DNA of 64,000 nt from a virus. Position 1 is the first letter of the stretch; every line of letters starts with the position of its first letter. The stretch is taken from the UHGV virus genome UHGV-0125821, one strand, 5' to 3'. Made by a program: the position numbers and the translations under genes. Of this stretch, positions 7,666 through 62,192 are shown piece after piece. The notes beneath the pieces are model-generated. The model made no database searches. It had not been told where the DNA came from and worked only from the letters and a program-made list of their open reading frames with translations.

Positions 7666-8703
7666 TTACCAGAGCTTCGCGGCGTACTGCGTTTGGGGGA
7701 ATGTGTATCCGTAACGTTCTTCGATTGCTTTGCCGTATTTTTTACGAGCTTCATTCAGTTTAATGCCGGTCAGGTCGTCTCCAGAGGCCATCATTACGTC
7801 TAACAATTCCAGATCCATTTTATCCAGCCTTGCCATTGCTTCACGTGATGTACGTATCTTACGCTCAATGATATGGCGAATAGCCGGATCGGCATCCTCC
7901 AGCATCTTAGCGGATTTCTGCTTAAGGCTTTCATTGCGAATATCGATGTTCCTTAAGATGTACGACTTCGCAACGTAGCTTGGCTGGTGTTTTTCCAGGT
8001 CACGAACACGATATAAGTTAAAATCGCCGAGAAGGCTGCAAGGTACCGATTCGACGCCAGAATAAATTGTAATGCTCCGGCGTTCACCAACATTATTGAC
8101 AACGGGGATCGTTGTCTTCGGTAGTCTTGCGAAAACCAATGCACCATGTGCGCCAACTCTAAAGCGAGAAAGGGCATTGCTGCCTTCGATGTTTGTTGTC
8201 AGCACAACATCTGTATATGCCTCTTTACGCGCCCGGTAGATCTCGCCTTCAGGCTCAGCTTCAAAGAAGCGCTGTTCTTCTTCAAGATCGCCTACGATTT
8301 GAGAAAAAACCCTATTTTTCAGGCTTTTCTTTATGATTTTGTCGTATTTTTTTAGCAATTGTTCACGTGTAAATGTACGTGTTGTTGTAGCGCTTTGCAC
8401 AACGACATGCGTGCTTTGATTGGTGTCCTCAATGATGAATGGGATCGGAGAATATACAGACTCAACAATGTTCGACGCTTTGCCGTCGGCATCGCGGCAC
8501 ATGTCAACGAAGGCTTTCCATTCAGCAAGACATTTTTCAGCTTCTTCTAATATGTTTTGGTCATGCGTTAATGCAACATGGCGGAATTCCTCGCCAGCAT
8601 AACTGGTATCATGGAAAACAGAGTTTGCGACCACCAGCTCTTTCCACCGTTCAGCGGTTTGCAGGAACCGTTTGTACTCTTTCTCGATCGACTTCTTACT
8701 CAT
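7666..8703 (-). CDS. hypothetical 345-aa protein at the position of the P1 c1 repressor
   Basis: antisense between pacB-like and rox/dre; operator-like motif 20 bp upstream of its start; function not established. Confidence 0.6.
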   Translation of the reverse strand: MSKKSIEKEYKRFLQTAERWKELVVANSVFHDTSYAGEEFRHVALTHDQNILEEAEKCLAEWKAFVDMCRDADGKASNIVESVYSPIPFIIEDTNQSTHVVVQSATTTRTFTREQLLKKYDKIIKKSLKNRVFSQIVGDLEEEQRFFEAEPEGEIYRARKEAYTDVVLTTNIEGSNALSRFRVGAHGALVFARLPKTTIPVVNNVGERRSITIYSGVESVPCSLLGDFNLYRVRDLEKHQPSYVAKSYILRNIDIRNESLKQKSAKMLEDADPAIRHIIERKIRTSREAMARLDKMDLELLDVMMASGDDLTGIKLNEARKKYGKAIEERYGYTFPQTQYAAKLW

Positions 8704-8718
8704 TATTCCTACTCGATT

Positions 8719-8738
8719 TAGTTTTCTAACATAAAATT
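8719..8738. promoter_or_regulatory. operator-like motif copy
   Basis: TTATGTTAGAAAACTAAATC on minus strand. Confidence 0.45.
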
Positions 8739-8914
8739 ACTATGACAAATTTATGTCGAATAACAGAGTGAGTAAAGGATCGAACTGTGATTTTTTGTCA
8801 TCAATTTTAGAAAACCAACCGTAGAAACCACACTTCGCAAATTAAAGACCATGAAGGCAACGTGTTACTGGTCATCATCAATCTATGATGGGTTAAAAAA
8901 AAATCGGCATTTTA

Positions 8915-8946
8915 TAACTTTAAATAATTGGCATTATTTAAAGTTA
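8915..8946. other. rox-like recombination site
   Basis: TAACTTTAAATAATTGGCATTATTTAAAGTTA; reverse complement equals the rox sequence as I recall it. Confidence 0.85.
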
Positions 8947-8955
8947 GGCTATAAT
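8928..8955 (+). promoter_or_regulatory. sigma70-like promoter overlapping rox
   Basis: -35 TTGGCA (8928-8933), 16-bp spacer, -10 TATAAT (8950-8955), pointing toward dre. Confidence 0.45.
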
Positions 8956-9098
8956 CATGTGTAGATGAACAGTATTGACATCACTGAAAATACGTACCTC
9001 GAATCAAAGGCTTGTATTTTGAAAATTAACTTATAGCTACCCTGTCATTTTTATATTTTTCGCGTAGCATCATCTGTATATAGAGGTGAAATAGTTTC

Positions 9099-26516: not shown

Positions 26517-26638
26517 CGATAGTCTGCCACGAATAGTTACTTCCACTGCCTAAAGTTATTTAATTGCATTACAAAGTGTAAATTAGTAACATTAGAATCT
26601 CACACAGCACTATAACTATATGTTTTTTATGTAAAAGG

Positions 26639-26998
26639 ATGATAATCGTGGCTACTAAAATTAAACTTGAAAACCCTCAAACTGGCGAATCAATCACCGG
26701 TTTTTATGGTTTTTCCTGGACTACATTCTTGTTTGGTGCTTTTCCAGCTTTGTTCAGGAAAGACTTTATAACTTTTATTGGGGTATTTGTAGTGATGCTG
26801 ATACTGGCATTCCTCACAGCCGGAATTGGCCCGTGGATTGCCTCATTTATCTGGGCGTTCATGTATAATAAATATTTCACCGTAAATAAGATAAAACAAG
26901 GCTTCATTTTTGCTGGTTCTCACACAGAAAATGAGTTGGCTGCTAGCAAGCTAGGATTGTCATTAAATCAAAACAACTGCAAAACTATTACCGAGTAA
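26639..26998 (+). CDS. membrane protein (2-3 TM helices), AT-rich gene
   Basis: 119 aa; low GC relative to backbone. Confidence 0.6.
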   Translation: MIIVATKIKLENPQTGESITGFYGFSWTTFLFGAFPALFRKDFITFIGVFVVMLILAFLTAGIGPWIASFIWAFMYNKYFTVNKIKQGFIFAGSHTENELAASKLGLSLNQNNCKTITE

Positions 26999-27006
26999 AG
27001 CCAAAA

Positions 27007-27030
27007 AGCAGGCTTAATAGTAAGCCTGCT
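27007..27030. terminator. 10-bp hairpin between convergent genes
   Basis: AGCAGGCTTA atag TAAGCCTGCT. Confidence 0.5.
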
Positions 27031-27037
27031 ATGTCAA

Positions 27038-27871
27038 TCACGAATCTCTCTGACAATTCAGAAACATAAACGCCCGCTTGTCTGTTAAATCCGTAACATA
27101 ATACTCTCTCATGCCTGTAGGTTTTATTCTACGAGCATATACAAACTTATGAACTGGTTGTTTTTCCCCATAACTTACATCAGTCCTAAATTCATCAACC
27201 ACGCTACCATCTTTTTCAGTTTCCTTTCTCACTAGCTGATTTTCTAATACAGGCTTTGATTCGTCCATGCCACTAAAAGCATCCTGACCTGTGCTGTTGC
27301 CTCGGTTTCCGCGTGGCAAATCCCATGAAAAATAAGTGCCATAGTCAGTAATCACACGATCCCATGTTCCGGAATCCCCCATATAGTTAGAACGCTCCCC
27401 CTTGTAAGTTACAGCCACCTTACAGGCATACGTTTCACCATTATTTTTTTTATCATGTCCAGCCATGCTTGCAGGAGTTGCAGGGGAATTATGAATAGAT
27501 GCGCTTACATCATCTTGCGTTAATTCCTCAACTGGAGCAAATTCATATATGGGTGTGCCGAGGCTATTTAAATATAACTTATATCTAACCCTAAGCGCAC
27601 TTCCATCAGAGAATTCATACGTTCCCAGACATTGGAGCTTATTTTTTTCTCTTATCTCATTGATCTGATTATAAGCATCAATTACAGAGATTGCTTCCTG
27701 ATCGTCCTTAAGCAGTTCATTATAATCATCGATTAACATCTGTCTGGTTTTAGGGGCATTACAGTCAATTTTGCTAAAATCATAAGCAAAGGCAAATGTG
27801 GGAACAGAGAGAGCAACAACAGTAGCAAGTATTGTTGAGGAACATCTTTTCCCATTTTTTATAAAAAACAT
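27038..27871 (-). CDS. secreted protein with cleavable signal peptide, AT-rich gene
   Basis: start set at MFFIKNGKR (SD GGAG); signal peptide ending AFA; 4 Cys in mature part. Confidence 0.6.
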   Translation of the reverse strand: MFFIKNGKRCSSTILATVVALSVPTFAFAYDFSKIDCNAPKTRQMLIDDYNELLKDDQEAISVIDAYNQINEIREKNKLQCLGTYEFSDGSALRVRYKLYLNSLGTPIYEFAPVEELTQDDVSASIHNSPATPASMAGHDKKNNGETYACKVAVTYKGERSNYMGDSGTWDRVITDYGTYFSWDLPRGNRGNSTGQDAFSGMDESKPVLENQLVRKETEKDGSVVDEFRTDVSYGEKQPVHKFVYARRIKPTGMREYYVTDLTDKRAFMFLNCQRDS

Positions 27872-29197: not shown

Positions 29198-29527
29198 ATG
29201 GGCTATAGCAGACTCGACGATAGGTACATTGAAGACGATATTTTTCGTGCGCTGTTTCACCAGGAAATGATTAAGCGGGTATCGGAGTATCACTCTGATA
29301 ATTTCCAGTACACGATAAAGATTGATGAAGTATATCGTTCAGATCTTGCAGCCTACCGGGCGTATGGCAATGCAGATTTGCGCTGGGTATTCCGGGTGCT
29401 GGTGGGCCATGAGTCAGAAATGGAAGAAATGCCCGCAGGGACCACGTTAACTCTTCCTGATGTGGCATGGCTGAGGAACAAGATCCGTGATTACGCGAGC
29501 GCGGAACCGGAGATAGAAAATGCCTGA
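29198..29527 (+). CDS. hypothetical protein
   Basis: 109-aa ORF. Confidence 0.55.
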   Translation: MGYSRLDDRYIEDDIFRALFHQEMIKRVSEYHSDNFQYTIKIDEVYRSDLAAYRAYGNADLRWVFRVLVGHESEMEEMPAGTTLTLPDVAWLRNKIRDYASAEPEIENA

Positions 29528-30713
29528 TTTCCTGAAAAACCAGGACGGGCGCTATATCACTGACGGCCTGTCCTCTAAGGACTTCACGCGTTTATTCGAG
29601 CTTATCAGGAAAGAACAAACCCGTAAGCGCCGACAAGCTCACCGGACGCTGACGCCAGGTAGACTGAGGAACAAATCCGCCGAAGATATTCTCAAGTTAG
29701 GGAAGAAAAAAGGCGGCACGTTCTTCACGCGAGACGACCTGAAAGGTTTCGAAAAGCTACGGAGTAAAACGCGCGAAAAATACGACAGCAAGACGGCTGG
29801 CATCACATACGCCCAGCTGGTGGCATCCAGCCAGGCAATCGATATTAAGCGTGCAAATAACGCCGTGGATGACGGATCTGGTATCAAAAGAGCTACACCC
29901 GTATCTCTTCGCCACAATGTGATTAATATCCGCGTAGAAGCATCGGATATATCCGTCCACCAGCACCATATCGTCCGGATACGCTTTGAAGAATGGGATC
30001 AGATGGTTGATGACATCGCAGAAGACGATAAATCAGCTCTCAAAATCACTAAATCACTGTGCGCCGGGCGAGTGTCTTTCGATTGTGACTGTGGTCGTCA
30101 TCAATACTGGTATCGTTACATCGCCACTGCGGGTAACTTTGCCCTGGCACCGCCAAAAGAATACGCCTATCCAAAAGTTCGCAACCCGAAGCTGCAAGGC
30201 GTCGCCTGTAAACACGTGATCCACTCAATGACGCGGTTACAGTCCGCCAGTTGGCAAATGAGTATTGCTCGTGCGCTACAAAAGGCTGCAACGCAAATTG
30301 CATTTGGTGATGATCGCCGCCGTACAACCAAACACTTCTCAAAAGAAGACGAGAAGGAGTTTAATCGCAATCGTAGCAGTAAAACGAACGTTGAAGCCGC
30401 CAAACGCGAATGGAGGCTCTATCAGAAGCGCCAGGCAGCTTTAAGTACAAAACTGGCAAAGGACAACGGCAAGATCGACAAACTACGTGACCAATTGACC
30501 AAGGCCAGAAAGTTGTCAGATGCACAGAAAAAACGGGCGGCAGCAAAAGAAGCGGCCTTGCAACGTGAGAAACAGAAAAACAAGGAGCTTCAGCAACGCC
30601 TTGCCGATCAGTTCGCACTGAAGAAGCAGGCGTTCATTGATGCGCTTGTCATGGCTGGAACACCACCAGCACAAGCTGAAAAAATGTTCATGGAGTATGT
30701 AAAAAAAGCATAA
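29520..30713 (+). CDS. SWIM-type zinc-finger protein with basic coiled-coil C-terminus
   Basis: FDCDCGRHQ ... GVACKHVIH (CxC-Xn-CxH). Confidence 0.65.
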   Translation: MPDFLKNQDGRYITDGLSSKDFTRLFELIRKEQTRKRRQAHRTLTPGRLRNKSAEDILKLGKKKGGTFFTRDDLKGFEKLRSKTREKYDSKTAGITYAQLVASSQAIDIKRANNAVDDGSGIKRATPVSLRHNVINIRVEASDISVHQHHIVRIRFEEWDQMVDDIAEDDKSALKITKSLCAGRVSFDCDCGRHQYWYRYIATAGNFALAPPKEYAYPKVRNPKLQGVACKHVIHSMTRLQSASWQMSIARALQKAATQIAFGDDRRRTTKHFSKEDEKEFNRNRSSKTNVEAAKREWRLYQKRQAALSTKLAKDNGKIDKLRDQLTKARKLSDAQKKRAAAKEAALQREKQKNKELQQRLADQFALKKQAFIDALVMAGTPPAQAEKMFMEYVKKA

Positions 30714-30746
30714 ACCACACATAGCCTAGTAGTTTATGCTGGGCTT

Positions 30747-31475
30747 TCATTTTTTTGAAAGATCAATTCCAGTATTATCAAACAAACTGGAAATATCAGA
30801 CACCAATTTATTAAAATGCTTGTCATCATTATAGAATGATGTGCTTTTTATAGCGACTATAAAATCACATAAATCTTGCGGAGATTCAATGCTAACCCCC
30901 TTATTTTTATATAGTTCAATAATACTGCCAACATCAGTATGCAATAGTTTTATCGCGCCACAAATTTCTCGCTGTTTCGTAACCAAGTCATTAAGTTTAT
31001 TTTCATTTTCATCTAAGATTTGTTTTGAATATTTAGCGTCATTGGTTGCTTGATTTAACTTTGTTTTCTTTCTTTGCAATTCTATTCTTTTATCATAATC
31101 AGCAACTTCATCTAAATATCTTATTTCAGTGTATAATTTACTTGTTAGCTTAGATATCTTCAGTGTGAGAACAGGAGCTAACACAGATGCAAATACTCCA
31201 TAAACAAATGGGATTACAACGTGATAAACCCACGGGGATACAATCCAATTATCAATGAACGGGACATTACCACCAACAGAAACAATAGATAATGTATATA
31301 GGATGTCGTCCTTTGACTTTAATATAATTAAAATATCCTTCCAGTTAAAAATTAGAAAAGAAATGACAACATATGCAAAAACCTTGTTAAATATTTTATC
31401 TTTTATTATTTCAGAAAATGATTTTAGTTCTGTTTCATTTATAGACGGATTATCTTTAACTTTTTCTGACATCAT
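30747..31475 (-). CDS. membrane protein with cytoplasmic coiled-coil domain, very AT-rich gene
   Basis: 2-3 TM helices then Lys/Asn-rich coiled coil; SD AGGA before ATG. Confidence 0.6.
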   Translation of the reverse strand: MMSEKVKDNPSINETELKSFSEIIKDKIFNKVFAYVVISFLIFNWKDILIILKSKDDILYTLSIVSVGGNVPFIDNWIVSPWVYHVVIPFVYGVFASVLAPVLTLKISKLTSKLYTEIRYLDEVADYDKRIELQRKKTKLNQATNDAKYSKQILDENENKLNDLVTKQREICGAIKLLHTDVGSIIELYKNKGVSIESPQDLCDFIVAIKSTSFYNDDKHFNKLVSDISSLFDNTGIDLSKK

Positions 31476-31496
31476 AGCTTATCCTGATTACTTTTA

Positions 31497-31697
31497 TTAT
31501 GGATAGTTAAAAGATTCAACAGGTGATGGTGGTTGAATTGGGTAATGTTTCTTCTCGTACTCCTCAATGAGAAGACTCATAACCTCAAAGAAATCACCTT
31601 CCGGAGTATTCATTTCCGGTTCGTTATCGAACATCGGTTCGACCGCACGCAGTGCGGCCTCATAATCTTGTTCTGTACGGATAGGTTTAATGTTCAT
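31497..31697 (-). CDS. 66-aa protein resembling the N-terminal domain of HigA-type antitoxins, no HTH
   Basis: IRTEQDYEAALRAVEPMFDNEPEMNTPEGDFFEVMSLLIEEYEKKHYPI; no obvious SD. Confidence 0.45.
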   Translation of the reverse strand: MNIKPIRTEQDYEAALRAVEPMFDNEPEMNTPEGDFFEVMSLLIEEYEKKHYPIQPPSPVESFNYP

Positions 31698-31710
31698 TAA
31701 TTACAAAGGA

Positions 31711-31737
31711 AAGCCCACTTGCTAAGTGGGCTTTTTG
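31711..31737 (+). terminator. intrinsic terminator-like hairpin
   Basis: AAGCCCACT tgcta AGTGGGCTT followed by TTTT. Confidence 0.5.
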
Positions 31738-31753
31738 TATGTGTTTTACTATA

Positions 31754-32092
31754 TCAGGCTGCTTTTTTATTCAGGTTCCGCTGAGAAATAAATTTTTCAG
31801 CAGTATTGATACGACTTAACTCTTCCTGAACGCGCATATCATTTTCGACTTCCCACAGATCTACTGCGGTCTGAAGATTAATCCAAAAATCTACAGAAGT
31901 ATCGAATGCTTTTGCCAGGCGATATGCCATATCCATCGTTAGCTTACGATTGTTATTAACAAGAGCACTTACGGTGTTACGATGAACATGAAGTATTTCT
32001 GCTAACTCGTTGATCTTCAGCTCTAACGGCTCCAGGTATTCGTACAGCAGGATATCACCTACGGTCGTCGGTTTTCTGGTTGCCTGTTTCAT
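31754..32092 (-). CDS. higA: HigA-family antitoxin (XRE-type HTH)
   Basis: TTVGDILLYEYLEPLELKINELAEILHVHRNTVSALVNNNRKLT. Confidence 0.8.
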   Translation of the reverse strand: MKQATRKPTTVGDILLYEYLEPLELKINELAEILHVHRNTVSALVNNNRKLTMDMAYRLAKAFDTSVDFWINLQTAVDLWEVENDMRVQEELSRINTAEKFISQRNLNKKAA

Positions 32093-32162
32093 TTTTTGCC
32101 CTTACTAGCGTGCGTATTAAGTGGACTCTGGTCAGAACCCGGTCCGTAACCGGGTATCTGTT

Positions 32163-32465
32163 TTAGTATTTGTGAGGGTCGAGATACAAGTCCTCGGCCT
32201 TTCCGTTAACCCACTTAAAAATTAACCTATATTGCTTATTCACCCTTACTGATGAATAGCCATTTAGCTTCCCTGACAGTTCCTCATACCGATTACCTGG
32301 TGGTGATCTTAAATCCTTACAGGTAGTTGCGGCATTGATAATGTCCAACTTCCGTGACAATGTCATATGAATATCAGGAGGTATCTTTCTATGTGGTGTT
32401 GAAAATTCAAAAAAATCATCAAGCCACGCATCCCTGAAATCCTTTATGTTAATTTTTTTGGTCAT
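32163..32465 (-). CDS. higB: HigB-family toxin (RelE/ParE superfamily)
   Basis: DFRDAWLDDFF...HRKIPPDI...LRSPPGNRYEEL...RLIFKW...LYLDPHKY. Confidence 0.8.
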   Translation of the reverse strand: MTKKINIKDFRDAWLDDFFEFSTPHRKIPPDIHMTLSRKLDIINAATTCKDLRSPPGNRYEELSGKLNGYSSVRVNKQYRLIFKWVNGKAEDLYLDPHKY

Positions 32466-32627
32466 TAGTCATTTGATCCTCCGTGATGATTACCGAATGC
32501 CATAACTATAGCGCACCGTTGCACTGTGCGCAAGTGCATTTTATGAATTCCCCCTCCTTCATCCAAAATCACAATCTCCAGAAAATCTTCCTTTCGATAC
32601 CTGACAGATCGACCTTTGAGGATGCTT

Positions 32628-33419
32628 ATGGGCCGTTTTGACGAATGGTTTGCTGACGATGCAAACCTGGCAAGTAAGGAGTCAGAACATGACAGCACGC
32701 AGAGAGAAACGCCAGCGCCGATTGAAGCGAATGCAGGAGGCGCGCCGGAACATGGCAATACCGGTTCGGATTCATTCAGCATTCTGGAAGAGCAACCCGC
32801 CGCCCAAGCTGATAGCCATGATAATTTTGCTGATAGCAACGGTGGCCTTACTCCGGATGCTGGCGAATCAGATATAGCCATACTTCCATCTTCCCTGGCT
32901 GGCAGAGAACCGACTCCACAGTTAAAAGCACGCTATAACGGGCATAAAGCCTTTAACGACCAAATCCGCGCAGACTGGATGCTGATTATTGAATCCAGCC
33001 CAGACGCGTTTCAGGCTCTCTTATATCGACCAGATGTTGGCACATATGGGGTAGTCAGCGACGAAACAGGAGAAGAGTCATTCACTGAACTGGATAACAA
33101 CCAACGCGAACTGACTTACCAGGAACCTGAAATCGTTTATGTGCTGGATAACCCTGACGGGCGTGACTCTTTCCATGCGATTGACGCAGACGGTGAGCAG
33201 GATGGCTTAACCGATGATGTTCTGATTCTGCGTATTGCAGCAAATAACGTCCCCGTCGGCTCAATTCTTGAATGGAATGAAGAGATGGTAAACGGCGTAG
33301 CGCGCCGCTGGTGGTACGTGCACCGTATTTTTAGCTACGGCACACAGCATGTTGGTTCGCTTTACTACTGCATACCTGCCAGGAATTTTGATACGACTCA
33401 AAACGGAGTGATCGAATGA
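32628..33419 (+). CDS. hypothetical acidic protein, possible virion component
   Basis: start set at MGRFDEWF with SD GAGGA. Confidence 0.6.
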   Translation: MGRFDEWFADDANLASKESEHDSTQRETPAPIEANAGGAPEHGNTGSDSFSILEEQPAAQADSHDNFADSNGGLTPDAGESDIAILPSSLAGREPTPQLKARYNGHKAFNDQIRADWMLIIESSPDAFQALLYRPDVGTYGVVSDETGEESFTELDNNQRELTYQEPEIVYVLDNPDGRDSFHAIDADGEQDGLTDDVLILRIAANNVPVGSILEWNEEMVNGVARRWWYVHRIFSYGTQHVGSLYYCIPARNFDTTQNGVIE

Positions 33420-34183
33420 CTTCAAATAAAACCCTCCTGGCGCGAACAGGTGAATGGCAAACCTCACGCACAGGAAAATTCCAGACCACGGGCTTTGAAA
33501 ACGTGGATAACGCGTTTGCGACGCTAATCAGCAACATTTTTTCTGATATCTTACTGGTGGCCCCCGCGCCGGAAGAAAAACGCTTTGCGTCATTCCTGAA
33601 TCGTCCACCAGCAGAGCGTGTCTATGTGGCCCGTTTCGACAATGCGATCGAGTTTCTTAAAGCAGTTCGTCGCGCAAATGCCGGGCAAGGGAGAAAACCT
33701 GAAAACCAGAACATTAACCGGGATGCTCTCCCCCTGGTCAATATCTCACGCACTATGGATATCAATTATATCAACGATGATCAGCAGATTGACCGCAAAA
33801 AAGTAGCCAGTTTTTGCGAACCGGATACCGGAATGCCTTTAGCAGAACTGGAATACACCCAGGCCATTCTGACGTATGACGTTACGTTAATGGCAACTGA
33901 TAAAGCGACCATGAGTCTGATGTGTAATTCGCTGGGCGCACGGCTTCGCCTGATGACAGGTACACAATTTGAAGCAACCACTCACCTTGTTCGTGTCCCG
34001 GTCCCGCTGATTTGCTCGATACAGGATGCCAAAGAAGTCGGCTTTACGGATGTTTCAGCACCAATTGGAGAAGAGCGTATTTATGCCACACAAGCGCCGA
34101 TAAGTGTGATTGCAGACGTGATCACAGCATGGGAGTTGGACGCAAAACGTATTATTACCGAAACCTCGATATCTATGGGGTGA
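33416..34183 (+). CDS. hypothetical protein, possible baseplate or tail component
   Basis: coupled to neighbours in plus-strand block. Confidence 0.55.
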   Translation: MTSNKTLLARTGEWQTSRTGKFQTTGFENVDNAFATLISNIFSDILLVAPAPEEKRFASFLNRPPAERVYVARFDNAIEFLKAVRRANAGQGRKPENQNINRDALPLVNISRTMDINYINDDQQIDRKKVASFCEPDTGMPLAELEYTQAILTYDVTLMATDKATMSLMCNSLGARLRLMTGTQFEATTHLVRVPVPLICSIQDAKEVGFTDVSAPIGEERIYATQAPISVIADVITAWELDAKRIITETSISMG

Positions 34184-52998: not shown

Positions 52999-53087
52999 AT
53001 AGCTTTAATTATGTGTGCTGGAGGGTTGCTCATTTCCCGTCAGCACCCACGCCCTCAACGATAGCGGGTAGGGAAGGTAGCGCAATT

Positions 53088-53384
53088 TTGAGGGCATTTT
53101 TTACATCATCAATTCATCTGTAATGAAGGCATTCTTTACACATTTCAATAATATCAATCAGTTAACACAGTGAATGATAATAAAAAAGCGCAATAAGAAT
53201 GCACGATACGCACGATATTGGTTGAGGGCGATTTTTACATAGTCCTTACATATCAATACGTTATATAAAAACACAACTTGCTAATAACAAGATACATGCA
53301 ATTAAGATGTAAAAATTGCCCTCAATTGCCGATCGTTAAGGGCAAATTCTACACCTTGAGAGGGGTGTAAAAATTGCCCTTAAG
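53088..53384. repeat. iteron array downstream of repA (incA-like), five copies in both orientations
   Basis: TTGAGGGCATTTTTTACATC, TTGAGGGCGATTTTTACAT and relatives in AT-rich DNA; last copy overlaps repA stop. Confidence 0.6.
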
Positions 53385-54135
53385 ACTGCTGATAGGTAAA
53401 TTTTATCCTGGTAACTTTGCCGCCTTCCGTCACCTCTGAGAAGACTATTTTCATTTTTGTATTTTTTTCAATCTCTGCTACAGCCTTCGTTAAAAAACTT
53501 CTCTTAAATTCGGCATACCGCTGATAGCTTTTTGGTAACCCATAACGCTCCCGCATCCATTCGACGCCAAGTATGGCAAAGCCGCTTCCATCATCCTTCC
53601 TGTACTGGCATAAGGACTCATAAAGCCGCATAGAATAAGGATTTGTAAGGCGAGATACTTCGGTAAAATTCAGCCTTGTGAATCTCTTATCAAGCAGAGT
53701 AAAAAACGGCATGAGATATGGATTAAGATGAATAATGTAAGTCCCGCGACGTGGTGAATAGGCATCCTTAATCATCCAGGGATAAGACTCATAACTGTCT
53801 TCTGATTCGGTCGATTCATCAGGGTTATATATCGTAACTTTCTTCTCGCTAAGACCTGAAATGGCCTTACGAATATCCTTGCTGGCTTCAGCAGAGGGCA
53901 AATTATACATCTCTGCATATTCGTTGACCGTCAACTCACAGGCACCTGAACCAAGAACGCCATCCTTAGAAGCATAGCGAAGTCTTCCCACCACAATAAA
54001 CAACAGTCGCTTTTGGTCGCGAGTCAGGTGATAAGCAGCCTCCGTGATCTCATTGGCTTGTGCCAAACTACGACTAATAGGTGTCGCTGACTCAATCAGG
54101 CTGACGGCTTTTGCTGTTAATTCCGCTCTGTTCAT
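53380..54135 (-). CDS. repA: iteron-binding replication initiator RepA (Rep_3-like)
   Basis: TNPYSMRLYESLCQYR signature-like block; flanked by iterons; start set at internal ATG. Confidence 0.75.
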   Translation of the reverse strand: MNRAELTAKAVSLIESATPISRSLAQANEITEAAYHLTRDQKRLLFIVVGRLRYASKDGVLGSGACELTVNEYAEMYNLPSAEASKDIRKAISGLSEKKVTIYNPDESTESEDSYESYPWMIKDAYSPRRGTYIIHLNPYLMPFFTLLDKRFTRLNFTEVSRLTNPYSMRLYESLCQYRKDDGSGFAILGVEWMRERYGLPKSYQRYAEFKRSFLTKAVAEIEKNTKMKIVFSEVTEGGKVTRIKFTYQQS

Positions 54136-59909: not shown

Positions 59910-61336
59910 CGATTACAGAATTACTGGACAAATTTAACGCCAAGTTAAATGAAAACACATGGTGGTCACGATTTGTAAATAGTCAGTTTGTGCAGATGCA
60001 CGCTATATTCGGATCGCAGCTTATTTATATTGCCCGTACATTTGCAAGCCGCGGCCTCACTGAGGGACTTATTTCAACGGCAACGCGTCGCTCAAGTATT
60101 TTAGCGGTTGCTGAAGACCGTAGCTACGTAGGGCGATTTGTTAGTGCTTCATACGGAACAACGTCTATAACCAATAAAACTGATCGGGATATTACGTTAC
60201 CAGCCGGGGCTGAATTGCTTGCCAATGACCAAACACCTTTGGCAATTATTAACAGTGTTGTAATTCCTGCTGGAGGAACTGTTTCTGGCGTAGAAACTAA
60301 ACAGCATGAAGCTGTTAGCATTACATTTGATATTGAGAAGGAAACTTTATTTCTGACATTGTTGCTTTCCAGAGAGTTAACAAAAGAAGTCTCTAGCCTG
60401 GATGTTTATGTTATTACAGATGGAGTAGAAGAAAAATGGACATATAACCCATTATTTAGAATGTCCAGAGACAAGAGTAAGCACTATTCATTGGCATATA
60501 AACCTACAGAACAACTTGGAGTCAAGTTTGGTGATGGTTCTATGGGTATGATGCCTCCAGCAGGCTGTCAGGTTCGAATCGATGTTATGGCTAGCCTTGG
60601 CGACTATACTTTGGCTGAAGGACAAAAGTTAGAACCGGCTGGAAATATCGCTCAATATGTGGAGTCACTAGAGTTTAAAACTGATTCGATCATTACCGGT
60701 GGTAGTGGTATGGAAACTACAGAAGAAACTCGAAATCGTGCTCAGTATTATGTTGCATACGATGAACAAGTGGTATGGGGCGGTGATTATCGCCAATTCA
60801 TTCAGAATGTTGTTCATGGAACTTCATGGTTGAACGTTTGGGGCGAAGCGTTACAAGAGAAAATAACTGGGTTTGACGTTCGAAACATCAACAAAATTTT
60901 CTTTTGCGGACATAAGCCGGGTGTAAGCCAGGCTCAGCTAAAATCAGAAATACTGAAAGCTCTAGAGAATGTTCCAAATGAGTTGAACAAGCGGTTCGAG
61001 TATGTAGATACAAATGAACAGCCATTTACTATAAATTTTATAGGTATTGCACGTAAAAATGTTCTGATAGACGATGCTCAAAATGCTATTAAAGCAGCAT
61101 TGGAAGATAATTTTGGCCGTGATTCGTCATCATTCAGTTTATTACTACAGAGTGATGATGATTCCCAACAATGTTATGCACAGGTAAAAGTTAAAGATAT
61201 TTGGCGAGTAATAGAGTCTCTGGATATGTTTCTGTCTTACGACATAACAATACAAAATATGAAAGATGCTGTTTACTTTAATGACTTCATTTATCTTAAC
61301 GTAAAATCTTCAACGTTCAGCATTTCTTACCCGTAA
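59906..61336 (+). CDS. baseplate protein (gpJ-like)
   Basis: 476 aa, position and size. Confidence 0.6.
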   Translation: MTITELLDKFNAKLNENTWWSRFVNSQFVQMHAIFGSQLIYIARTFASRGLTEGLISTATRRSSILAVAEDRSYVGRFVSASYGTTSITNKTDRDITLPAGAELLANDQTPLAIINSVVIPAGGTVSGVETKQHEAVSITFDIEKETLFLTLLLSRELTKEVSSLDVYVITDGVEEKWTYNPLFRMSRDKSKHYSLAYKPTEQLGVKFGDGSMGMMPPAGCQVRIDVMASLGDYTLAEGQKLEPAGNIAQYVESLEFKTDSIITGGSGMETTEETRNRAQYYVAYDEQVVWGGDYRQFIQNVVHGTSWLNVWGEALQEKITGFDVRNINKIFFCGHKPGVSQAQLKSEILKALENVPNELNKRFEYVDTNEQPFTINFIGIARKNVLIDDAQNAIKAALEDNFGRDSSSFSLLLQSDDDSQQCYAQVKVKDIWRVIESLDMFLSYDITIQNMKDAVYFNDFIYLNVKSSTFSISYP

Positions 61337-61346
61337 TGAGGTTAGC

Positions 61347-62192
61347 ATGAAAGATAATTGGCTTAAGGAACGATTAACTAAAGTAAAACAGGATTCACAT
61401 CTCTGGAGTGCATTTATAGACGCTTTACAGGATGTCTGGAATGAGGCAGTAGAACCAATATTAACAAGAATAAGTAACAGAAAATCCTTCTTCACTATGG
61501 ACAGTGAGGATATGGATGCCCGCATTGCTGAATACGGGCGTTTTTTCGTTATCACTGAAAAAGATAAGGACCGTAGGCCAATGCTGCTGGCGCAACGTTT
61601 AGATGAAGTGCACTTTAAAGGCACTATCTTGCCTATTGAGCAGACATTCTGGCGTGAATTCGGTTGTATTCCTGTTAGTTGGGAACCGCTGTATGCACCT
61701 GTAAATATAGAAAAACACCCCTATGGTTCATATTTTGCGACCGAAATAGAAATACCTACGGCACAGGCTCAATTCGGTGAGTTCTTCCTGACATCAAGGG
61801 GGCTGGTCGTTGTTGATCAGAACAAGCTATATCGCTCATATGGAGAGCAGGATAAAGAAGCCGCTGTGCAGAAATTGTTATCTGACTTCGAAACAGTAAT
61901 AGCCCCTTTGTTGCCATTGCATATTGTTTTTGATGGCGTCTCGTTTCGGCTTAGTGCTGTATTCCCTGAAGTGGCAGAAATACTAAATTGCTTGTCTACG
62001 GATGTTTCGGTAATTGAAGGTGTTTATGTTACTGAGAGTATGGCTGATATGCTATCCCGTAGTGATACCTCCTGCCAGGTAAACAATATTTCTCTTAACG
62101 CCATACAGAACAGAACGGCAGAAAAGCAATTACATCTTGATGTAACCCCACTCGATGCGTGGCCTTTGGATTACCACCTTCAACCTGTTTAA
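61347..62192 (+). CDS. baseplate protein (gpI-like)
   Basis: 281 aa following gpJ-like gene. Confidence 0.5.
   Translation: MKDNWLKERLTKVKQDSHLWSAFIDALQDVWNEAVEPILTRISNRKSFFTMDSEDMDARIAEYGRFFVITEKDKDRRPMLLAQRLDEVHFKGTILPIEQTFWREFGCIPVSWEPLYAPVNIEKHPYGSYFATEIEIPTAQAQFGEFFLTSRGLVVVDQNKLYRSYGEQDKEAAVQKLLSDFETVIAPLLPLHIVFDGVSFRLSAVFPEVAEILNCLSTDVSVIEGVYVTESMADMLSRSDTSCQVNNISLNAIQNRTAEKQLHLDVTPLDAWPLDYHLQPV

Follow-up and report, generated by a model that had tools for sequence, protein, structure and literature searches.

The stretch of DNA that we analyzed, 64,000 nt of the virus genome UHGV-0125821 (hereafter the window), carries a small cargo island between two phage tail genes, and the last gene of this island, a resident there that we call X, encodes a predicted inner-membrane protein of 242 aa. 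Our preferred reading, to which we give a probability of roughly 0.4, is that X is an accessory protein, expressed during lysogeny, whose action at the inner membrane, without partners, keeps out other phages or competing elements or aborts their infections. A role in exclusion or abortive infection is suggested because X and its relatives occupy cargo slots in two unrelated temperate phage types, run against late transcription, and are low in GC; because their neighbors are toxin–antitoxin (TA) or defense genes; because ancient alleles sit in young backbones; and because a conserved membrane module is joined to a fast-changing cytoplasmic part.

Gene X lies at 30747–31475 on the minus strand. 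A 21-nt spacer on the same strand (31476–31496) separates the stop codon of a 66-aa open reading frame (ORF) from the X start codon and contains a Shine-Dalgarno sequence, AGGA at 31485–31482, 6 nt ahead of the ATG. The original prediction, made from the letters of the window, had described an AT-rich ORF with a Shine-Dalgarno sequence encoding a membrane/coiled-coil protein, and this description held. The GC content of X is 29.2%, compared with 47.1% for the window, and the lowest-GC 729-nt stretch in the 64 kb is 30791–31519 (29.1%; runner-up, 35.8%). Lysine is the commonest residue of the protein (28 of 242), which also has 15 asparagines. Where two to three transmembrane (TM) helices had been proposed, we found two hydrophobic segments, at residues ∼32–54 and ∼77–108. 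An AlphaFold2 model built on four sequences was poor (predicted local distance difference test score [pLDDT] 54), and a model built on 30 homologues was usable (mean pLDDT 79.8). It places an N-terminal amphipathic helix first, followed by TM1, a short helix and β-hairpin loop, a continuous helix spanning residues 81–192 whose start is TM2, and a small helical C-terminal domain. The charge distribution over 30 family members favors an N-in/C-in topology and the hydrophobic periodicity of residues 110–192 peaks at 3.55 residues, so the coiled coil is likely cytoplasmic.

The element carrying X could be placed with confidence. Over positions 29500–33500, identity to the P1-family plasmid prophage Escherichia phage D6 is 94.6%, and positions 30600–32600 are 100% identical to several ∼89 to 93 kb non-mobilizable Escherichia coli plasmids; the window therefore represents a D6-like, P1-family phage-plasmid. 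In phage P1, genes 26-25-7-24-6-5 are contiguous and genes 25 and 7 abut with nothing in between, so the whole island in the window is an insertion, and neither X nor the 66-aa ORF is conserved backbone, in line with the original prediction. The island sits between homologues of tail gene 25 (29520–30713, plus strand; dS, the synonymous divergence, is 0.008 relative to D6) and tail gene 7 (32628–33419, plus strand, with its start at ATG 32628 according to the D6 annotation) and is transcribed antisense to the late operon. The region is present in 95 of 5426 complete E. coli genomes, on a plasmid in every case, and is of the window type in 51 of the 95. D6-like phage-plasmids as a whole are found in ∼1 to 2% of complete E. 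coli genomes, and in Salmonella and Shigella too. A recent survey found a complete recognised defense system in only one D6-like element (bioRxiv 10.1101/2025.09.12.675607). Many database copies of X are "partial" proteins at contig ends, often of ∼55 kb contigs, and short-read assemblies of these plasmids seem to break repeatedly at this gene of 29% GC.

X is a real gene under purifying selection. It is intact in 13 of 13 loci of the window type, and within this clade 16 codons differ only synonymously and 17 by replacement (binomial p = 3e-4 against neutrality). Tail gene 25 in the same clade has 55 synonymous-only and 16 replacement codons, so X is the more relaxed of the two (Fisher p = 0.006). 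Beyond the clade, X is extremely variable. Its alleles share 37 to 63% aa identity between D6-like plasmids, and across the loci where they differ, gp25 and the antitoxin encoded ahead of X are 96 to 100% identical and gp7 is 98.5 to 100% identical, except in locus L005 (∼79%; locus labels are ours). All alleles have 29 to 33% GC. Between the window and D6, dS in X is 1.16 and dN, the replacement divergence, is 0.31, in flanks with a dS of 0.008 to 0.03; older allele pairs have a dS of at least 1 and a dN/dS ratio (omega) of 0.2 to 0.5. The same allele classes occur behind either of the two toxin cassettes described below (L002/L038 and L039/L005). Deep allele divergence in near-identical backbones, together with these shared classes, argues that X is an old polymorphism that recombination has shuffled into very young backbones.

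The variability is unevenly spread along the protein. Mean identity is 76% over the amphipathic helix and TM1, 58% over TM2, 28% over the coiled coil, and 36% over the C-terminal domain, and for the two alleles closest to each other the cytoplasmic part has an omega of 0.84 and the TM part one of 0.17. TM1 of the family has an invariant Asn, and TM2 has two prolines that the members share. If X does act in exclusion or abortive infection, it would do so at the membrane through its conserved TM hairpin, and the variable cytoplasmic coiled coil and C-terminal domain would meet the invader and set specificity. X would probably be transcribed by read-through from the promoter of an upstream higBA pair, and the 66-aa ORF would be a decaying relic with no part in its action. 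That X is independent of the antitoxin is indicated by its intact state in all loci with the truncated antitoxin and by the occurrence of its allele classes behind either cassette.

We looked for relatives of X in several ways. The protein matches PHROG 8191, a family without functional annotation, over its full length (E = 6.6e-121 over 1–242 of 242). The window protein had no match in Pfam, NCBIfam, or PADLOC; 30 family members scanned against Pfam and PADLOC gave coiled-coil noise only (BRE1, ZapB, LmuB, JetC, and SMC-like models), as did a profile search of the PDB with X, and no fold match was obtained. One homologue, in locus L011, had a marginal match to the PADLOC model "Effector 2TM" (E = 4e-4) that the other 29 members lacked. 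Thus, X matches no membrane exclusion, abortive-infection, or CBASS-type 2TM effector family described in Pfam or PADLOC, in agreement with the earlier statement that the protein belonged to no known family. A literature search returned no paper naming the accessions or PHROG 8191. The family is small: an exhaustive profile search of 1.84 billion representatives recovered just 50 relatives, and word-indexed homologue searches found seven clusters only, to which a profile query added almost nothing. X belongs to no described family and appears to be of a familiar kind: an accessory membrane protein that a prophage carries in a TA cargo island. P22/lambda SieB, HK97 gp15, and T4 Imm are small accessory membrane proteins, prophage-expressed, often encoded as morons among structural genes, and variable between related phages. 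X has no detectable sequence or fold similarity to exclusion proteins of this type (Pfam scan, fold and profile searches); it is larger, and most of it is a coiled coil that is probably cytoplasmic.

Since X lies among tail genes and its two TM helices and coiled coil superficially resemble holins or i-spanins, we also weighed a role in the virion, in lysis (as a holin or spanin), or in another backbone function. P1 has no X, and D6 is the only carrier of the gene among 50,697 deposited phage genomes. X is antisense in the tail operon, where TA genes and a tail gene flank it and no endolysin or o-spanin gene adjoins it; it is hypervariable beside conserved tail genes; and some elements that are complete in other respects have a broken copy. 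Its length of 242 aa also far exceeds that of class II holins. The comparison with P1 and this variability effectively exclude that X acts in the virion or in lysis.

Homologues of X also occur outside the D6-like plasmids. P2-like Klebsiella prophages carry lone X homologues on the opposite strand between tail genes, upstream of the gpV spike gene, and a P2-like remnant in Lelliottia has one after ogr, with an AAA_15 and DUF4435 pair also present. In genomic islands, X homologues accompany a WYL regulator, DUF4942, H-NS, or resolvases. One homologue lies 93 bp downstream of a TacA/GNAT-toxin pair, another 12 bp downstream of a DUF4145 protein matching PD-T7-4, and a lone chromosomal homologue lies between ordinary genes in an Enterobacter genome. 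The distant homologues have no conserved partner; convergent neighbors of ∼145 aa in L012, L014, and L053 proved mutually unrelated, and PADLOC run on ten neighbors picked out one protein resembling PD-T7-4 and a WYL regulator, the rest being coiled-coil noise. In the Lelliottia amnigena contig L053, positions 210–2529 hold an AAA_15/AAA_21 ATPase and DUF4435 pair together with a distant X homologue; this pair presumably resembles the PARIS defense system.

The lone Enterobacter homologue among ordinary genes, the dispensability of X in several lineages, and its lack of similarity to any defense protein would also suit a non-defense accessory or conversion protein that modulates the envelope or division, or helps to establish or maintain lysogeny, with its neighbors as fellow cargo. 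Membrane-tethered cytoplasmic coiled coils are, moreover, common in division and envelope proteins. We regard such a role as unlikely. X is found repeatedly in cargo slots beside TA or defense genes, and extreme allele divergence in near-identical backbones would not be expected of a protein acting on conserved host machinery.

Directly upstream of X lies the 66-aa ORF (31497–31697, minus strand), a remnant of the N-terminal domain of an antitoxin of the same type as HigA (YgjM) from E. coli K-12. It is the equivalent of orf72 in phage D6 (MF356679), where orf72 (ASR76362, "HigA family addiction module anti-toxin") and the X homologue orf73 (ASR76396, "hypothetical protein") occupy the same slot between tail genes 25 and 7; neither protein has been characterized. 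The products of X and orf73 are both 242 aa long and share 59% identity. Unlike the window, D6 has a full antitoxin of 119 aa with a helix-turn-helix (HTH) domain (HTH_3 at residues 63–115) and a hairpin before orf73. Codons 1–54 of the 66-aa ORF are identical to orf72 at the DNA level. The 66-aa product has no Pfam match and no HTH, and the HTH-coding DNA is absent from the window; thus, the ORF was rightly read in the original prediction as an HTH-less N-terminal fragment of a HigA-class antitoxin. It matches PHROG 10398 and PHROG 1373 ("transcriptional regulator," E = 8e-19) and, over positions 1–65, the PADLOC model PD-Lambda-2_B (E = 2.5e-16). D6 orf72 matches the first 119 of the 402 positions of that model (E = 4e-43), and its nearest solved relative is E. 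coli HigA (PDB 5IFG and 5YCL; residues 6–112, E = 8e-8). E. coli K-12 HigB/HigA (YgjN/YgjM) has the same two-domain antitoxin layout as the full-length protein and a toxin of the PF09907 type, as in some relatives of the island; unlike it, the window copy consists of the first domain only and has no PF09907 toxin. We know of no third gene like X at the E. coli K-12 HigBA locus.

The fragment had been called orphaned, and this was correct in that its own PF09907 toxin type is not upstream of it in the window. Its place is taken by a complete and different HigB/HigA pair, which the original prediction did not mention and which displaced the PF09907 toxin. This pair consists of a 100-aa HigB toxin (32163–32465, minus strand; PF05015 HigB-like_toxin, E = 4.4e-35) and its partner, a 112-aa HigA antitoxin (31754–32092, minus strand; HTH_3, E = 7e-11). 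The PF05015 toxin gene comes first and the HTH_3 antitoxin gene second on the same strand (32465–31754), as in Rts1-type HigB/HigA pairs, and both proteins are 100% identical between the window and D6. A GC-rich, terminator-like hairpin with a weak U-tract (31710–31734, minus strand) lies between the HigA stop codon and the ATG of the 66-aa ORF. Upstream of the pair, the palindrome TGCACTGTGCGCAAGTGCA (32520–32538) overlaps a promoter-like site, TTGCGC-17-TATAGT, within 32500–32545, and this is probably the operator/promoter of the PF05015 HigBA. Judged from these features, the PF05015 HigBA, and not the 66-aa stump, would be the functional-looking addiction module of the island.

To follow the history of the island, we classified 35 loci from plasmids, viral contigs, and metagenomes. 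Seven D6-like loci (L002, L004, L039, L041, L042, L045, and L046) carry a PF09907 HigB, the antitoxin, and X; there, the toxin, of the E. coli K-12 type (E = 3e-34), stops 3 nt ahead of the 119-aa antitoxin gene, and X follows. Another 11 loci, including D6, have the PF05015 HigB, its HigA, the 119-aa antitoxin, and X. In a third arrangement, found in 13 loci including the window, the PF05015 HigB and HigA are followed by the 66-aa stump and X; all 13 have the window X allele (at least 96% identity), and none of the 35 loci combines the stump with any other X allele. The full-length 119-aa antitoxin occupies the site in D6 and in 20 of the 33 related loci that span it, an alignment that had been proposed with the original prediction, and in every relative examined an X homologue lies directly downstream of the full-length antitoxin. 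The ancestral island was likely HigB (PF09907), a 119-aa HigA with an N-terminal domain and XRE HTH, and X.

Two events separate the window from this arrangement. The first is a cassette swap. By BLASTN, the exchanged segment runs from 32565 to 31705 in the window (minus strand), with its junction 7 nt before the ATG of the old antitoxin; it comprises the promoter region, both genes, and the hairpin at its end, and it replaces the 383-bp promoter and PF09907 higB of loci such as L002 and L004. The swap took away the old promoter with its palindromes and the GGAG, inside the PF09907 gene, that preceded the antitoxin ATG. The old antitoxin is therefore an orphan without evident expression signals, since the promoter/operator and GGAG are gone and a hairpin now precedes its start. 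In the D6 lineage, the PF09907 toxin and promoter were thus replaced by a self-contained PF05015 HigB/HigA cassette ending in a hairpin, which left the old antitoxin without toxin, promoter/operator, or ribosome-binding site.

The second event affects the stump itself. Between the window and D6, the tail genes, HigB/HigA, and antitoxin codons 1–54 have a dS of 0 to 0.03, with zero differences in codons 1–54, whereas codons 55–66 have a dS of 1.1 and a dN of 0.31, the same as X. Because divergence jumps from zero to a dS of ∼1.1 at codon 54/55, we place an approximate homologous-recombination breakpoint at 31535/31536 (minus strand). Downstream of it, a 109-bp segment without a BLASTN match to D6 (31407–31515, minus strand) holds a deletion junction; D6 has 309 bp there, made up of the HTH-coding half of orf72, the hairpin, and the first ∼23 codons of orf73. 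The hairpin between antitoxin gene and X of D6-type loci is absent from the window. The DNA downstream of the breakpoint derives from another, deeply diverged lineage in which this antitoxin likewise stood ahead of X. Recombination in the window lineage imported the diverged 3′ part of the antitoxin together with X, in an allele short of ∼200 bp (the HTH and the intergenic hairpin), to leave a 66-aa stump abutting X. The original prediction had proposed a foreign insertion that truncated or co-opted an antitoxin gene. A diverged segment does start inside the antitoxin, at codon 55, but no insertion of X broke the gene: X follows the full-length antitoxin in every relative, and the event was an allelic replacement with a ∼200-bp deletion. 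We are confident in this reconstruction as a whole, that is, a P1-family cargo island, an ancestral trio, a PF05015 swap, a recombined diverged allele with ∼200 bp lost, and an X under selection.

We are highly confident in reading the 66-aa ORF as a relic, because its toxin, promoter/operator, and ribosome-binding site have been lost and because the orphan antitoxin has also decayed independently, by a frameshift in L043, where X is intact. In other genomes, too, this antitoxin is often found truncated or frameshifted, and a search for HTH-less relatives with the 66-aa query returned mostly frameshifted or contig-end fragments. Co-option of the antitoxin, the other half of the earlier proposal, is unlikely for a stump that has lost its promoter/operator and Shine-Dalgarno sequence and sits directly behind a hairpin.

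We nevertheless considered two ways in which the stump could still serve the element. X might be a membrane toxin neutralized by the antitoxin N-terminal domain, now the 66-aa product. An antitoxin gene lies ahead of X in every D6-like locus, it is largely intact in 10 of the 11 loci whose PF09907 toxin is gone, and all 13 stump-bearing loci keep the 66-aa reading frame open; in the analogous, unrelated VcHigA2, the N-terminal segment alone neutralizes the toxin (PMC5416850). With backbones at a dS below 0.05, however, an intact orphan is expected even without selection, and the stump has three polymorphic sites only. The stump also has no Shine-Dalgarno sequence or promoter and lies behind the hairpin, X is intact where the antitoxin is frameshifted, the X homologues of P2-like prophages and of islands lack a partner of this kind, and an antitoxin 96 to 100% identical beside an X of 37 to 63% identity argues against a coevolving pair. 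We hold this arrangement to be quite improbable. Scarcely better placed is the idea that the stump is an anti-addiction factor against the PF09907 HigB left behind by a displaced trio-carrying D6-like plasmid. Both island types circulate in one plasmid family, and the stump keeps exactly the non-HTH domain with codons 1–54 unchanged; N-terminal segments of modular HigA-type antitoxins can, by analogy, suffice for neutralization (PMC5416850). The absence of expression signals speaks against it, as do the truncated and frameshifted copies found elsewhere, which look like ordinary decay.

The loci that keep the PF09907 toxin bear on a rival to the independence of X. The trio of toxin, antitoxin, and X also exists in a deeply diverged version in the Enterobacter phage-plasmids L011 and L044, with identities of 26% (toxin), ∼29% (antitoxin), and ∼35% (X) and tail proteins 68 to 82% identical. 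The diverged trio is present at 96% nucleotide identity in Klebsiella IncF plasmids that have no tail genes and in which X is split by IS903B; an example free of phage genes is L006:3153–5746 (Klebsiella pneumoniae IncF plasmid NZ_CP089990), with ∼50 similar records. The trio, known in these two deeply diverged versions, has both persisted and moved as one unit, and a further X homologue lies behind the TacA/GNAT-toxin pair. X could, therefore, be the obligate third component of a HigB-HigA-X module resembling PD-lambda-2, in which the TA pair senses and X executes or targets, and the window would hold a crippled relic of it.

PD-lambda-2 is a tripartite, toxin–antitoxin-like defense system (Vassallo et al. 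2022, PMC9519451) composed of a HigB-like A, a B with a HigA-like HTH and a C-terminal peptidase, and a P4-antitoxin-like C, which is required for defense and not for neutralization (PMC9519451). The likeness is confined to the trio relatives, where the PF09907 toxin has a full-length match to PD-Lambda-2_A (E = 1e-41), the antitoxin resembles the N-terminal part of PD-Lambda-2_B (1–119, E = 4e-43), and a third gene follows on the same strand. In the window, the PF05015 HigB has no PADLOC match to component A; the match to B covers 1–65 (1–119 in D6) of 402 positions and the ImmA/IrrE peptidase (∼280 positions) is absent; and neither X nor its D6 homologue has a PADLOC match to component C. 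The window is therefore not a PD-lambda-2 member, as it has no A homologue, peptidase domain, or C homologue.

Several observations weigh against an obligate module. X is intact and selected in 13 of 13 loci that lack the PF09907 toxin and the antitoxin HTH; its alleles reassort independently of a 96 to 100% conserved antitoxin, behind either cassette; a hairpin stands between the antitoxin gene and X at loci of the D6 and L011 types; the distant homologues of P2-like prophages are without a TA neighbor; and the peptidase domain and a C-like protein are missing. The PADLOC matches to A and B may reflect general HigB/HigA homology, given that the nearest solved relative of the antitoxin is an ordinary E. 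coli HigA. We therefore think an obligate tripartite system unlikely. We are equally doubtful of a broader version, in which HigB(PF09907)-HigA-X is an undescribed tripartite defense module related to PD-lambda-2, with a membrane coiled coil replacing the peptidase and C, the many ancient X alleles of the D6-like phage-plasmids would be specificity variants under frequency-dependent selection against different phages or rival phage-plasmids from the same family, and X would since have become able to work alone, as in the window and in P2-like prophages. Toxin–antitoxin–chaperone (TAC) modules such as HigBAC likewise have a HigB/HigA pair followed by a third gene on the same strand, as in the island, and some TAC systems act in abortive infection (PMC11980606). 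Unlike their third component, X is a membrane protein, has no SecB similarity, and persists without the antitoxin.

We return to X as an independent exclusion or abortive-infection protein, against which a number of points have to be set. The functional assignment comes from context and evolutionary pattern only, and searches of Pfam, NCBIfam, PADLOC, and the PDB linked X, by sequence or by fold, with no known exclusion or defense protein. Expression in the lysogen is assumed: between the cassette hairpin, which precedes the stump, and X no minus-strand σ70-like promoter was found, and the junction sequence TTGAAT-17-TAAAAG looks weak as a promoter by eye. In three unrelated settings, a TA pair immediately precedes an X homologue, which would fit a dependence of X on a TA module. 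X is dispensable, as it is split by IS903B in the Klebsiella IncF plasmids and has a frameshift or stop in L040 and L045. Finally, omega is below 1 in every comparison and positive selection is not demonstrated, and much of the variability could reflect weak constraint and recombination, because coiled coils tolerate substitution.

Other features of the region complete the description of the slot. A hairpin at 30723–30745, terminator-like on the plus strand, lies between the convergent stops of X and the gp25-like tail gene. An Rfam scan of 30500–32700 gave no match, and no P1 late-promoter box was recognizable by eye upstream of gene 7. The gp25-like protein (29520–30713, plus strand) has a CxC...CxH motif (SFDCDCGRHQYW...GVACKHVIH) that resembles a SWIM zinc finger; a C-terminal coiled coil rich in Lys and Gln comes after it, and the protein has no Pfam match. 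Locus L043 (5811–6290; IMG/VR UViG_2563366977_000001) contains an extra 159-aa ORF, without a PADLOC match, between X and tail gene 25; the slot therefore takes further cargo. A second RelE/ParE-HigA pair lies just past baseplate gene 26, a few hundred bp from the island, in L003 (4894–5465), L035, and L043. Four other low-GC islets in the window rank after X (35.8 to 38.1% GC; 60785–61513, 26532–27260, 8332–9060, and 53083–53811) and may be further cargo genes.

In these phage-plasmids, then, one accessory gene is kept as many alleles (dS of at least 1) in backbones with a dS below 0.05, beside TA cassettes that are also being swapped. Genes involved when mobile elements come into conflict typically show this pattern; the spread of alleles and the repeated TA linkage of X make a concrete lead in an element family with few recognised defenses. 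The antitoxin stump is a clean, dated case of the decay of an orphaned antitoxin after a toxin cassette swap, in itself ordinary gene decay. Without a role in exclusion or abortive infection, the X locus would be an ordinary moron of unknown function. On the features gathered here, X is a reasonable candidate for phage exclusion, and if it does have such a role, it would represent a new membrane-protein family for phage defense, would explain the cargo slot of these plasmids, and would offer a natural allele series for studies of specificity.

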